NCBI GenBank assembly: GCA_951406725.2
Contig: OX597823.1
Location: 82,398,001-82,462,000 of the forward strand
DNA: 64,000 bases
Source: Octopus vulgaris
Lineage: Eukaryota
Reading direction: 5' to 3'
The notes beneath the pieces were generated by a model. The model was not told where the DNA came from and made no database searches. It saw only the letters and a list, made by a program, of their open reading frames with translations. The number at the start of each line of letters is the position of its first letter. Positions within the stretch are counted from its first letter, which is position 1. Positions 9,173-58,420 of the stretch are shown piece after piece. The position numbers and the translations under genes are program-made.

Positions 9173-9403
9173 ATTGATAGAAATGTTAAGACAACAAAAG
9201 AATGAAAGAGACCTCGATATTATGTAAATAGAGGAATTTATTCGTAAATATGTGACAGTTATTCGGTAGCCATGATAAAACTCCGAGTTTCGGATGTCGG
9301 ATCGGAAACCCACGCTGCCATCTCTTCAGTTATCTGGCGTGAATTTCCACCCCAACATCCGAAACTCGGAGTTTTATCATGGTTACCGAATAACTGTCAC
9401 TTA
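9173..9403 (-). mobile_element. Penelope-like non-autonomous element with inverted end, inserted in (TA)n
   Basis: ~46 bp inverted repeat (9252-9297 vs 9355-9400), (TA)n on both sides, contains a hammerhead motif. Confidence 0.75.
9269..9338 (-). ncRNA. Type I hammerhead ribozyme motif
   Basis: gccagataa-CUGAAGA-gaug..cauc(c)-GAAA-cucggag-UU/uuaucauggc; helix I gauaa/uuauc extended by gcca/uggc, near-palindromic helix III, one extra C at the base of helix II. Confidence 0.7.
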
Positions 9404-9910
9404 TTATATATATATATATATAAAGTTTATATTTATTTGTGTTTCTGCCTGCGTTTCTTTATGCTTGTTCCCCACCATTTGACATCCTGTGTTGGTTTGG
9501 TTACACCCCCTATAAGTCAGCCATTCAACATAAAAGATTGTGATTAGAATAAGTATCACACTGAAAATATAATCAGTATTGTTCGACAAAACCTTTCATG
9601 GTCGCAATCCAATGAACGAAACAAGTAAAAGCTAAAGCATAAAAGATCCATTAACTCTGATCTACAAATGAGTAGAACAGATGATTGTTACTGTTTGCAT
9701 GTTTGGTAAGTAAGCTGTAAGCTACTTTCTTTCTCTGATGAAAAATCACGAGTAGGGACTCCAGATTAGACGACAATAATCAGTCGAAACTTTTAAGCGT
9801 GGTTTAACGACAAATTATATATGAAAGCCAGGATAAATATATATTTCGTGAAACATACTTACATGAATGTATTTACCATTCGCATATGTACATACACAAA
9901 CACATACATA

Positions 9911-10116
9911 CGAGGGGTTGCTGAAAAGTTCCTGTCATTGGGTGAAAAAGAAAATACAGGCGGGTCAGTCAATTATGATTTTATTCAACATATTCTTCTC
10001 TCAGATTCACACGCCTATTGCAGCAGTCCTTCAGATTTTCTAAGCCCTGTAAAAGAATTTAGATGATTAGGCCTCCAACCAGACTACAAAGTCAAGAACT
10101 TTTCAGCACCCCCTCG
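9911..10116. mobile_element. Mariner-type MITE
   Basis: TIRs CGAGGGGTTGCTGAAAAGTTC / GAACTTTTCAGCACCCCCTCG, TA on the left flank; second copy at 23775. Confidence 0.85.
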
Positions 10117-10721
10117 TTCACGCATGCACACAAACGTATGAATGCGCTTGTATGTTTTGATGATTTGTTTCTTCCATAGTGAATAGTTTCAGGCAATAGA
10201 CCAGTGTCTTTTCTTTATTGTAGTTTAATCTAATGAACACTACAGATAAGTATTAGCTGTATATTTATGTCTGGTTGTAGAATAATTTTTATACTAATGC
10301 GACTTTGTCCCAGATATAAACTGGAAAAAGAAATGTGTATTTTCTCAGTGTTTCTATGTATATAAAACAATCTATTTAACAATTCTGTATAAGCTCTGTT
10401 TCACATTTGGCTTTTCAAAATTATGTGTAGACGTTTCAATGTTTTGACTGGTCATCATAGCATATAATGTAAACAAATAGAAATTCGAGGGTTATGTGTA
10501 AACTATAACAGATTGACAACTTATTGCATTGGAATGAATTGTTTGCCATATAAAAACATTGAGCTTGTTTTGATACATGCACAAAACTATTTAAAAGATT
10601 TGTCTAAAGTCAGCCAACGAATAATCAACGAATAATAAACGTACTCATTTGATATGCTGGAAATAATAGCTAAATTTCTTTCAAACAACGTTGCCGTCTT
10701 AACAAGTAACTACACATGTTT

Positions 10722-10916
10722 CAAGACTTGGTACATGTCCAGCAATTTAGTGGAAGGGGTAAGTTGATTACACCAGCCCCAATGACCAACCGGTGCTTAT
10801 TTTATCGACCTCGAAAAGAACAAAAAGGCAAAGTTGATCTCGGCAGTTGATCTCGGATGAAATGCGGCTAAGCATTTTGCCCGCCTTGCTAATGATTCTG
10901 TCGGCTCGACGCCTTC
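10722..10916 (-). mobile_element. SINE family A, diverged
   Basis: TTTTATCGACCTCGAAAAG..AAGGCAAAGTTGATCTCGGC..GAAATGCGGCTAAGCATTTTGCCCG..CTCGACGCCTT. Confidence 0.7.
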
Positions 10917-11464
10917 ATACATGTAGTTAGTAATATACAGAAAGATGTGGCGGCTACGGCTAGAATACTTTTGGATATTGGGTTTGATTCATAATACCTG
11001 AAAAGGAAGTTAAACAGCAACAACAACCTATCACAATAATGTAATTGATAAAAACACGAACGCTACATTTGATATCGACATTCACCGCAATCACTGGACA
11101 CTAAGTAACGAACGGAGAAGTCATTCATTTGTATCAATTCACCGTTAAGACAAGTAAACACACATCTAAGATATAAAAAGAGATTGTTATTTAGCATAAG
11201 GTCAACGGTGATAGACATCTATGATCTGTAGCATTTTAGCCATTACCGTTCCATCATTTCCATGCTACCTAGATCTATATTAGTCAATATGTGGTTTCCT
11301 TATTTAAAGACTGAAGTGTATGGATTGAGAGATGGCAAATCGGATGGTGTCATCGGAGCTTCTGAGTTTGTTTGACACACGTCAAAGTAGAAAACCTAAC
11401 CAGTATAAGTTATGTACTACTGTGAGCAATGACATTATAGTGACATGGATATGTTTCGTTGGTT

Positions 11465-55465: not shown

Positions 55466-56119
55466 AATGAATATATATGCACGTGTTTGTGTGTGTGTGT
55501 GTATTTATGTTTATTTGTATGTATATATGCATATGTAGATGTTTTTTTTCCATGTGGTGTGTGCGTACTTGGTGGAATCTAGATGAATACAGTGTATGAA
55601 AAGCGTATTAAGGTGTGGTTGCTCTGAGTGTGAGATTCTTGAAAGTTCAAATTCCTTGTGTAGATGTTTGGTGACCTTAGTTGACATTCTATTGAAGCTT
55701 ATTACTGTAGAACAATTTCTTGGCATTCTGCTGACCTCCCAGGGTGGATGCAGTCATCCATGAATTCTATAGAATCTTTAAATTATCAGCCATTTAATCC
55801 ACCATCTCCCCACCTGTGTAATTACTGTTCTAAAAATATTTTTTCCATTTTATTTTGCACATATTTTTATGTTATTTTATTTCTACTTCATTTGTTATTT
55901 TAATTTTCTTGATCTCTTATAGTTCCTTGTTATTTGACTTCAATTGACGATGGTGAATCCTTTAATTTCATTTAGCACTTTATCTTAATCGACATGAAGG
56001 TGTTTAAATGTGAAGACATTTTTTCTAGAATAATAGAGCTGCTATTTATTTTTCCCGACCAAATGAATATAATTTTATGCAGTTTCGGCCTTCCATACTT
56101 TGCACATATTAGTTCCAAC

Positions 56120-56325
56120 TTTTTCCACAAGGCCAACGATTTTGAGGGAAGGATTAAATCGATTACATCGATCTCATTAATCAGCTGGTACTTATTTTAT
56201 CACCCCAAAAAGGACGAAAGGCAAAGTGAACCTCAACGGATTTTGAACTCAGACCGTAAAGATGAACGAAATGCCACTAAGTAGTTTGCCCAGTGTTCTA
56301 ACGATTCTGCCAGCACGCTATCTTA
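56120..56325 (-). mobile_element. SINE family A, diverged
   Basis: CTGGTACTTATTTTATCACCCCAAAAAGGACGAAAGGCAAAGTGAACCTC..TTTGAACTCAGA. Confidence 0.75.
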
Positions 56326-57249
56326 ATATTTTGCATGTATCAAAAACGTATGTATTATTCCACTCATATTCATAATATTCATATTTATGTTTAATATCAT
56401 TCACCATCTTGCATTGAGAATCAACTTCAGATTATTATATATTTTATTAATATTTGTAAGTGCATGATTTGTTATCATTGAAATAGATTATTATCACCAG
56501 CCCATGCCTAACAGAATTTCCATAATATGAATAGGATAATATTACCTATTTTAGTTTGATACCTATATTTTATATCACACACGACTTCAGTCAGGTTTTT
56601 AAATCTATAATTGATTTATCATTGGATACTCAGAGTTACATAGTATTGTGCAGTATTAACAAAGTTTCGTTTTTTTCATCAAAATATCTGACACCAGAGT
56701 CGTTTTTAAGATTATTAAGTATCATATTTGAGTCTAATCTGACGATGTACTAATTATTCTAAGAAATGTTTGGTTTTGGAATTAGTATATTTGGTCTGGC
56801 GAAAAGTAACTACTTAACATTAGATTCGTATTAAAATCCATACACCTTTCAAAGATATTTCTTTGAATTTGGAATACCTCATTGAATGTATTAGTGAACT
56901 TGGCTTATAAAGCTTACAAATTATCGTTTATTTTTTTCACCATCCCTTTTGATCGAAATTCGACCCATTTTTTTTCCTTCTCTTCTTCCCAAAAAGAAAA
57001 CCTCTACTTTGAATTTTATATATATTAACCGAATTTTGTTCCTTCTGTGTTCAGCCCTGCGTGGCTAATAAAGAAATCTATCGCAATCTGGCCAGAGACA
57101 GATGGAACGTAATTAGGCGGGTTGCTGTCCCTATAGTATTCTATTCTAAAAATTTGACTGGACAATTTCTCAGGGTATTCCTCGTAAAATTCATCGATTT
57201 TAGTCTATTATATTATATTACTCTTTACCACAATACTACAATAATACAG

Positions 57250-57803
57250 TATTAAATCTCAGAGCGAGATGTAAACAGTAACCGCTCAACAACGTAAAGT
57301 ATAAAAGCCATCTCAATATGGCTAACCACAAAGTGGGGGCGTTACTGTAGCTTTTAGCCCCAGGAGATCGACGTCTCCAGCTGGCTTTAGACACACTTTC
57401 TGTGCCCTTCAGGTATTTGCAAAGGGAAGTCATCCCTTCCTCGTAAGCCTTAGTGATACGCACCGGACCGCGGTTTCGAGATTATTGTCTCTTATCAACG
57501 GGCGGTAACCACCAGGTCACGATGAAAGGCAAGGCTTGCTTTGCAAATATATAAGAGTTTTTCTAGTGACGTCTGCCACTGATTTCGAAAAACTGACTGT
57601 AAGCATTATTAAATCTCAGAGCGAGATGTAAACAGTAACCGCTCAACAACGTAAAGTATAAAAGCCATCTCAATTTGCAAATACCTGAAGAGCACAGAAA
57701 GTGTGTCTAAAGCCAGCTGGCGACGTCGATCTTCTGGGGCTAAAAGCTACAGTAACATCCCCACTTTGTGGTTAGCCATATTGAGATGGCTTTTATATTT
57801 TAC
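57250..57803 (-). mobile_element. Non-coding Penelope-like/retrozyme-like element: 357-bp unit, 68-bp terminal redundancy, ~130-bp inverted end
   Basis: Direct repeats 57250-57317 and 57607-57674; 57674-57803 is the reverse complement of ~57294-57423. Confidence 0.85.
57459..57504 (-). ncRNA. Type I hammerhead ribozyme, U3-A8 variant
   Basis: cgcccg-UUGAUAA-gaga caauaa ucuc-GAAA-ccgcgg-UC/cggugcg; perfect palindromic helix III ACCGCGGU, GUC site. Confidence 0.8.
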
Positions 57804-58344
57804 ATACCTAGTATGTCGAAACTAAAGTTTATTATAAGTAATAAAGTAGTATAACTCTATCATATATATTCCTTTTCCGTTTGACCACAACTGATCTGTT
57901 CAGGCATGATTCACTCGCCTTTTCTTCAACTCAGGATTCGTTTTTCCACCTTTGTTATATTCTTCTGTTGATCTTTCCGTCTCAGCACTTTCTTTTTCTG
58001 GTCCTTTTGGACACTATTTTCCATTGTGTTACACATATCTTGTTCTAATCCTGTCTTAGAGCGGAACGGCCTTTATTTTGTATATATATTTATATTCATA
58101 ACAACCACCTGTGTGGTGTTTCTTTCCCCCACTGTCCTTTAGGTTCGCTCATTATCCGCAGCAGCTTTTTGCTGCAAACACCACCATCTGTTCCCGTTAA
58201 AGGCACGAAATTACTATGATTTCGGGGCTATAACTTACAAGGAAAGAGCATGTCCATGTCATGCGTGTTCCGTTAATTCCTTTGTCGTCCTCCTGTGCCT
58301 TTTTGAATCGTATATATATATATATATATATATATATATATATA

Positions 58345-58420
58345 AGTCATTGCCTAACAGCTGTTTCTGCTATAAGTGGACTCATCGGGACCGGGAATAT
58401 TTCTTTGTCATCTCCCAACC
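58345..58420 (-). mobile_element. ~75-bp insert between two (TA)n tracts with a degenerate hammerhead
   Basis: CCGAUGA..CAGAAACAGCUGUUAG; palindromic ACAGCUGU as in 38124, but helices I and II do not pair well. Confidence 0.45.

Follow-up and report, generated by a model that had tools for sequence, protein, structure and literature searches.

Which elements carry the hammerhead ribozymes found throughout a 64,000-nt stretch of the Octopus vulgaris genome, and how might these elements be copied? The stretch, hereafter the window, is C10:82398001-82462000 (contig OX597823.1 of assembly GCA_951406725.2) of a genome of 2.80 Gb in 227 contigs. An earlier note on this DNA had listed seven well-formed type I hammerheads and four variant or decayed ones. 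In the reading that we consider likely, based on sequence analysis, the window holds short non-coding or truncated hammerhead retroelements, probably copied by the reverse transcriptase (RT) and GIY-YIG endonuclease of Penelope-like elements (PLEs), probably of the Neptune clade; they include a large group with a permuted hammerhead, termed SGC, that is predicted to form a pseudoknot and to cut itself. This permuted hammerhead is the most novel feature of the locus and is absent from the earlier note.

The window is microsatellite-rich, and no host exon is seen among its open frames. Two related repeats, at 20694-20795 and 38915-39013, had been missed. In alignments of their families, a cleavage block (S) is followed by a linker of 2-3 nt, GAAA (G), a 15-nt linker, and CUGAUGA (C). 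This S-G-C order is a non-circular permutation of the hammerhead with a predicted pseudoknot, as in the type-SGC hammerhead of Eckert et al. 2023 (PMC10085705). The corresponding features are given below; candidate numbers here and later come from first-look DNA searches of the octopus genome and are not copy numbers.

20738-20811, minus strand: SGC-1 motif, with block S at 20786-20797 (predicted cut 20792/20791), a 2-nt linker, block G at 20771-20783, and block C at 20738-20755.
20805-20811 with 20756-20762, minus strand: extra helix of SGC-1.
20500-20844, minus strand: SGC-1 element, a 5'-truncated copy of a non-coding 831-nt tandem unit, 94.6% identical to the natural unit L104 (2,540 candidates).
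38956-39013, minus strand: SGC-2 motif, with predicted cut 39010/39009 and core 38962-38968; the copy begins about 4 nt before the cut.
38716-39013, minus strand: SGC-2 element, a 5'-truncated copy of a non-coding 853-nt tandem unit (927 candidates; top relatives at 97-99%).

An assignment of 20740-20797 as a type II hammerhead was rejected, with stems I and III traced upstream of GAAA. About 30-50 nt upstream of the SGC cut (20815-20844) lies a U-rich tract that ends in CAG or CGG before GAAGG and resembles a 3' splice site. This tract also folds into a hairpin, and the GAAGG within it might compete for stem II.

In the genome, two SGC core patterns that do not overlap match exactly at 4,633 and 1,735 sites, and their reversed versions, used as controls, at 35 and 0. 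A third SGC family query returned 4,773 candidates. Near-identical SGC sequence is present in contigs of two other organisms; the motif was found in 0 of 118 metagenome stretches among those listed and in 0 of 30 viral stretches scanned. The SGC-2 unit is covered by contigs from runs that we guess to be RNA; these contigs show neither ends nor strand. Two weak matches in SGC order from a random sample (L208 and L212, score 14) were dropped as background, as shuffled sequences reach 13.5-15.5.

To what extent is the SGC pairing supported? For clade 1 we used the first 70 listed copies and for clade 2 a set of 40; both sets come from the beginning of a single chromosome. Sorted by eye, the 70 comprise 53 copies that keep block S, 14 that start behind the cut, two with internal deletions, and one chance match. 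At successive positions, stem I pairs in 53, 53, 49, 51, and 53 of the 53 copies, and stem III in 52, 52, 53, 52, and 39; four positions of stem I and three of stem III occur with two alternative Watson-Crick pairs. The search patterns themselves prescribed the CUGANGA and GAAA boxes but left the cleavage triplet free. This triplet reads GUC in 25 of the 53 copies, GUU in 13, GUA in 13, and otherwise in two, with none ending in G. U16.1 is kept in 52 of the 53 and H17 is G in none, while among the 32 of 40 clade 2 copies retained at a pairing score of at least 7, H17 is other than G in 31. Position N7 is variable among the SGC copies.

An extra covarying helix is formed by the 5' flank and the G-to-C linker; it continues stem III and abuts stem I. 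In 26 hand-picked natural copies, 92.3% of cells are paired, against 80.8% in shuffles that take no account of relatedness (0/500) and 41-48% in slid controls. Double changes occur in 13 of 22 pairs, among them 5 of 6 in stem I, 3 of 5 in stem III, and 5 of 7 in the extra helix. Clade 2 has U-A, not C-G, at stem III pair 2, and U-G or U-A, not G-C, at stem II pair 4; its stem II pair 3 is G-C, and stem II carries one double and one single change between the clades. Nested folding recovered stem III and the extra helix in four of five copies. By eye, the 5' and 3' flanks also allow a possible closing helix; it and the extra helix may take over the role of the published helix between stems I and II. 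We hold with high confidence that the SGC pairing is real.

Covariation of this kind is blind to whether the strands meet locally or between units. The SGC carriers, in which we recognise no coding frame, repeat in tandem as units of 831 and 853 nt, and other tandem spacings run from 589 to 1,019 nt; given such tandem units, blocks S, G, and C could pair between neighbours, giving a type II or III hammerhead without a knot that would function in multimers only, and dimer folds are indeed the published model for PLE hammerheads (PMC4209133). Such pairing, however, would have to bridge about 800 nt, while stem III and its extension fold locally and every subfamily has a short S-to-G linker, about 3 nt being typical of the monomeric type SGC (PMC10085705). 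We regard pairing between units as quite unlikely and favor a pseudoknot within the monomer.

The 3' ends of the SGC elements are fixed and lie beside (TA)n; their 5' ends are truncated to varying degrees, and inverted 5' pieces occur. For SGC-1, the 3' ends lie at 317 or 396 and inversions are present in 4 of 25 cases. Insertion marks of SGC-1 and of the type I families A and B, described below, were counted by eye, and truncations were classed by eye because BLAST 5' extents are inflated by (TA)n matches. The units SGC-1, SGC-2, and B contain no open reading frame (ORF) of their own for RT and GIY-YIG. Both SGC copies of the window adjoin Neptune-type pseudo-long terminal repeat (pseudo-LTR) ends across a short microsatellite, and at locus L479 an SGC copy is fused directly to a Neptune-type pseudo-LTR at a TTTT microhomology. 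The PLE features of the window are as follows.

20858-21060, minus strand: Neptune-type pseudo-LTR end, with a decayed minimal hammerhead (core 20972-20978, G12 mutated).
21612-21962, minus strand: GIY-YIG endonuclease remnant with CxxC motifs, from the same element as the pseudo-LTR at 20858.
39060-39260, minus strand: decayed end of a pseudo-LTR that adjoins the 5' side of SGC-2 and contains a degenerate minimal hammerhead; assigned by eye.
53607-53800, minus strand: family G, a Neptune-type pseudo-LTR end with a minimal hammerhead whose core register is 53730-53736, with a base other than A at position 6.

A near-intact Neptune-type PLE lies elsewhere in the genome at L267:5691-8197, with a 685-aa RT frame, one frameshift, and then a GIY-YIG domain. 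The remnant at 21612-21962 is 59% identical to this element over 61 aa, with a Pfam E value of 0.017, under the cut-off. We provisionally call the L267 element Neptune-type by its CxxC linker, following PMC8557442. L267 supplies an ORF of the partner type, and a Neptune-type partner for the SGC elements is only suggested. RT/GIY-YIG remnants had previously been placed at 20858, 41310, and 52225. The first position is corrected here to the GIY-YIG remnant at 21612-21962, and the other two were unconfirmed in Pfam and family checks (E 0.085 at 41310, no match at 52225). A lone family G 3' end at 7843-7878, between long (TA)n runs, carries no hammerhead.

The anatomy of the insertions also bears on whether PLEs are involved at all. 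The elements could be satellites or short interspersed elements amplified by unequal crossover or by the RT of a long interspersed element (LINE), with their PLE look incidental; no 3' sequence shared between SGC elements and autonomous PLEs has been demonstrated, and satellite-like local amplification is discussed in bioRxiv 10.64898/2026.07.22.740005. Against this, the copies are dispersed over many chromosomes, and they combine alternative 3' ends at fixed positions, a tail that may be present or absent, partial tandems arranged head to tail, and 5' pieces in inverted orientation, which together make up the PLE signature (PMC8557442, PMC11167929). Amplification by such other routes appears very improbable to us, and copying by a PLE remains the preferred reading.

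The 5' ends of the SGC copies are informative with respect to cleavage. Fourteen of 69 copies begin at +1 to +9 behind the predicted cut, where about two are expected from the upstream truncation rate (P about 5e-8). In clade 2, about 7 of 40 copies begin near +1 to +13, as judged by eye, and L261, a copy from an unbiased census, also starts just behind the predicted cut. This pile-up hints at cleavage in vivo.

These observations suggest the following mechanism. A tandem copy would be transcribed, and the SGC motif is predicted to cleave its own RNA. The SGC hammerhead would cut as a monomer: its stem III is non-palindromic with 4-5 bp, its stems I and II are connected by a short linker, and the extra helix would continue stem III and abut stem I. 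Type I motifs with a palindromic stem III would instead cut as dimers. RT would begin internally, at either of two sites some 80-350 nt downstream from the ribozyme cut, at a nick in AT-rich DNA; an internal start of this kind has been shown in vitro for the anole PLE (PMC11167929). Copying of multimeric or circular RNA would give inserts longer than one unit, and on cut SGC RNA the RT would run off at the 5' end and leave inserts beginning directly behind the cut.

Several points weigh against this reading. The majority of 5' junctions fall at +6 to +8 and not at +1; the core pattern is blind to starts beyond about +10, and the small unbiased census also contains starts at +14, +21, and +44. 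Family B shows no cluster of 5' starts at its predicted cut. As to structure, stem II has 4 bp, two of them G-U pairs, and is invariant in clade 1, and in three of five nested folds its G strand pairs with a downstream hairpin. The published helix joining stems I and II of type SGC was not found in that form. The shuffle control disregards relatedness, and the compensations should be counted as perhaps 6-8 subfamily events, not 53. As to the partner, no autonomous PLE bearing the SGC motif occurs among the loci examined, and PLE ends near SGC copies show neither side nor orientation bias (16, 16, 17, 11) nor enrichment on the 5' side. Finally, published minimal hammerheads of PLEs cut poorly or need protein (PMC4209133, PMC11167929).

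The weak stem II with its competing hairpin and the junction peak at +6 to +8 would also fit a conserved but weak or silent structure that serves RT binding or RNA stability, with the 5' truncations reflecting RT stalling. In line with this, PLE insertion in vitro needed no hammerhead cleavage (PMC11167929), and only one of nine Xenopus retrozyme dimers cleaved in tests (bioRxiv 10.64898/2026.07.22.740005). On the other hand, the triplet stays NUH across subfamilies even though it lies outside the search patterns, variation at N7 and at the bulged base 9.1 resembles that of active hammerheads, and an RT that has reached +6 to +8 would already have copied the partners of stems I and III. We consider a silent structure unlikely and retain the self-cutting SGC hammerhead as the preferred interpretation.

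Are the type I hammerheads of the window equally real? All 11 sites of the earlier note sit on the minus strand. A strict type I descriptor gives five matches in the window (9329, 20029, 38169, 40920, and 62868, the last being AT-rich), compared with eight in total, 0-2 each, in 30 dinucleotide shuffles of the window. The comparison with shuffled sequence suggested in the earlier note thus succeeds for the strict descriptor and fails for one allowing a single core mismatch, which gives 15 matches against 3-14 per shuffle and was rejected as a detector because its matches do not exceed the shuffled level. Rfam was of little help as a check: among 150 of 323 rows examined, in a list swamped by microsatellite matches, the only hit is HH9 at 57443-57516 (34.3 bits, E 7.4e-5), and this best score among those listed is under the gathering score of 52. 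Sites were therefore judged by family context, with the best 20-30 loci read per family. The type I elements of the window are as follows.

9175-9400, minus strand: family D, type I hammerhead with core 9323-9329 and cut predicted after 9279; fold-back inverted 5' piece; between (TA)n runs.
14532-14865, minus strand: family E, a 365-nt retrozyme unit with a canonical-type type I hammerhead and family-wide U4C (core 14739-14745, predicted cut after 14712).
19741-20497, minus strand: family B, a 596-nt unit with a 105-nt partial tandem and a 46-nt inverted 5' piece, in (TA)n.
20023-20029, minus strand: core of the family B hammerhead, type I with a long stem II; predicted cut after 19935.
38052-38455, minus strand: family C, a decayed copy at 83-87% to its relatives (core 38163-38169, with private G3/C8).
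38470-38690, minus strand: family H, type I with a family-wide G3-C8 core at 38635-38641 and a fold-back 5' end.
40630-40947, minus strand: family F, type I with core 40914-40920 and predicted cut after 40873; relatives have compensated stems.
57247-57803, minus strand: family A, a 357-nt retrozyme unit with a 74-nt partial tandem and a 130-nt inverted 5' piece.
57492-57498, minus strand: core of the family A hammerhead, canonical-type type I with a U3-A8 core; predicted cut after 57466.
58345-58420, minus strand: unsupported candidate, with likeness to family C limited to the GAAA/cleavage part.

First-look candidates number 3,852 for the 57459 element (family A), 1,577 for 38124 (C), 1,827 for 19929 (B), 1,680 for 14706 (E), and 2,534 for 9269 (D). 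The core is canonical in 17 of 20 loci of the 9269 family, in all 25 of the 19929 family, and in 17 of 24 of the 38124 family; it carries U4C in 20 of 20 loci of the 14706 family and U3-A8 in 26 of 28 of the 57459 family. The G3/C8 of the window copy at 38124 is private decay, and this site was rejected as a natural G3-C8 family, its relatives carrying a canonical core. Most relatives of 38599 do have a G3-C8 core, and those of 40867 have compensated stems. Sites 53705 and 20944 belong to a single minimal family with the core CUGUNGA (A6U) in 9 of 12 cores. Site 39163 is heavily decayed and has no BLAST relative, with a by-eye resemblance to a related pseudo-LTR family, and 58351 has no relative among the genomic loci examined and lacks stems I and II. 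The type I hammerheads of the window are real: the list in the earlier note stands for 10 of its 11 sites, which lie in, or resemble, multi-copy families, and falls short at 58351, which is unsupported. Taken alone, this type I part carries our very high confidence.

Families A, E, and B consist of non-coding head-to-tail units of 357, 365, and 596 nt with one type I hammerhead each, and thus are non-LTR retrozymes by unit definition, that is, short non-coding tandem repeats with a type I hammerhead per unit. The longest open frame of unit B, the unit covered by the open-frame scan, is 67 aa; its top copies share 99.5% pairwise identity and form arrays of at least five units. All three families show partial tandems, inverted 5' pieces, and alternative fixed 3' ends, with (TA)n targets for B and E. 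In family A, inverted 5' pieces occur in 12 of 28 loci and 3' ends at 313 or 354-357; in family B, 8 of 22 loci are inverted and 21 of 22 end at a TA run. Stem III of family A alternates between an 8-nt palindrome (12 of 27 parsed loci) and a 6-nt one (8 of 27), as expected for dimer folding. The elements had been described as families that do not align with each other, which does not apply throughout: E aligns with A (14706 with 57459) at 65% identity across 155 nt, and 20944 with 53705. Families A (57290-57450, minus strand) and E (14560-14705, minus strand) share a hairpin run downstream of the cut, a candidate RT-recognition structure.

The proposal of non-autonomous families mobilised by Penelope proteins is supported by the 357-, 365-, and 596-nt units with their PLE marks and by the presence of a Neptune-type RT/GIY-YIG element. 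It does not extend to every site. The hammerhead at 20944 lies 3' of the endonuclease remnant and therefore marks the end of an autonomous element that has been truncated; the sites at 38124, 38599, 40867, 9269, and 53705 may be such ends as well.

Other families were noted along the way. Type I families with a long stem II are found at L172:7030-7660, L183, L232, and L194, one of them in tandem at a 494-nt spacing. A natural multi-copy G3-C8 family is represented in the window (38635-38641) and at L189, L249, L265, and L279; the same double change is a laboratory rescue mutant in PMC11167929. An abundant minimal family with U, not A, at core position 6 and a variable N7 occurs in the window (53730-53736) and at L216, L223, L238, and L266.

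How representative is the window? We sampled 100 evenly spaced 10-kb pieces of the genome (1 Mb), as well as 200 kb beside the window. In this 1 Mb the strict type I descriptor matches 25 times, 12 times on the plus and 13 times on the minus strand, while three shuffles yield 1, 0, and 0 matches; a homology census of the same samples gives 59 sites/Mb, about 1 per 17 kb with decayed ones counted; the latter is a lower bound, as the probe set is limited. The extrapolated load is about 70,000 well-formed type I motifs and at least about 165,000 sites in total in the genome. The window is about threefold denser than the genome average, partly because its own sites served as probes, and the previously stated density of one motif per 6 kb holds only locally, overestimating the genome roughly threefold. 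The adjoining 200 kb contains five hammerhead-homologous sites.

Of the 14 hammerhead-homologous sites between 9255 and 58420, 13 are on the minus strand and only an inverted 5' piece is on the plus strand. The genome samples have 33 such sites on the plus and 26 on the minus strand, and the neighboring 200 kb has two and three; the minus-strand bias is thus confined to the window and was not found in either comparison set. An unrelated repeat (37556-37716) is biased the opposite way, with 11 plus and two minus. Decayed frames at 31908-32234 and 5875-6457 are, judged by their motifs, putatively transposase-like and LINE-like.

The type I part of these findings is ordinary, published biology (PMC4209133; PMC7229834; bioRxiv 10.64898/2026.07.22.740005). 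Like the non-LTR retrozymes of Cervera and de la Pena 2020 (PMC7229834) and Li et al. 2026 (bioRxiv 10.64898/2026.07.22.740005), which have been proposed as PLE-mobilised or PLE derivatives, families A, E, and B are non-coding tandem units with one hammerhead each; A and E have canonical-type stems and loops. The main texts of these two papers make no mention of octopus or cephalopods. The SGC elements look like retrozymes but fall outside the definition, as their 0.6-1 kb units contain no type I hammerhead and carry another topology. Like the minimal hammerheads of PLE pseudo-LTRs (Cervera and de la Pena 2014, PMC4209133, where a circular-template model for PLE copying is also given), those seen here have a palindromic stem III, an unpaired base before stem II, and a U3-A8 core, and occur as thousands of solo copies and as opposite-strand pairs 100-700 bp apart. 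The family-wide G3-C8, U4C, and A6U cores, in contrast, are not met in the available passages of that paper, and the extrapolated octopus load of about 70,000 strict type I motifs compares with about 9,000 in Xenopus (PMC4209133), with differing descriptors.

The Anolis Poseidon PLE (Frangieh et al. 2024, PMC11167929) shares the two alternative 3' ends with an optional tail, the AT-rich targets, and a hammerhead upstream of the RT start; unlike the elements described here it is autonomous, and its tails are 30-40 bp against 44, 79, and about 100 nt. No RNA ends were seen at the hammerhead of the anole PLE in that study.

The type-SGC hammerhead, or HRIMA-1 motif, was described from metatranscriptomes and reported absent from genomes of known organisms (Eckert et al. 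2023, PMC10085705). The octopus motif shares with it the S-G-C order, all core nucleotides, the short stem I-II linker, and covarying stems I and III. It differs in having thousands of chromosomal copies in retroelements, as opposed to metatranscriptomic virus-like RNAs; in a PLE-style bulged base before a weak stem II; in an extra helix that extends stem III and abuts stem I in place of the published stem I-II helix; and in that its activity is predicted from sequence. Our search for type-SGC hammerheads in the literature, which left subscription papers, Repbase, Dfam, and supplements outside its scope, found only Eckert et al. and no animal report; PMC13725137, in the part seen, merely cites hammerhead permutations. 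No hammerhead survey of octopus or cephalopods was found in this search. The new element would be a genomic, retrotransposon-borne variant of a rare hammerhead topology, for which earlier annotation is possible.

Non-circularly permuted hammerheads were previously known from environmental sequence of unknown hosts. With over 6,000 copies from two or more clades, the genome now provides a natural variation set for the SGC fold, in an animal that can be sampled. Since the animal hammerhead surveys considered used type I descriptors, they may have overlooked SGC motifs elsewhere. Whether PLE-type hammerheads cut in vivo is an open question in the field, which the pile-up of 5' ends makes testable from genomic data. 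In a broader view, on which our judgement is evenly balanced, cephalopods would harbor a long-lived and still amplifying non-autonomous superfamily, mobilised by Penelope proteins and built on a pseudoknotted hammerhead. Such a hammerhead would be the first of type SGC in any cellular genome; it would act as a monomer in vivo, and about one-fifth of the inserts would preserve a record of its cut at their 5' ends.

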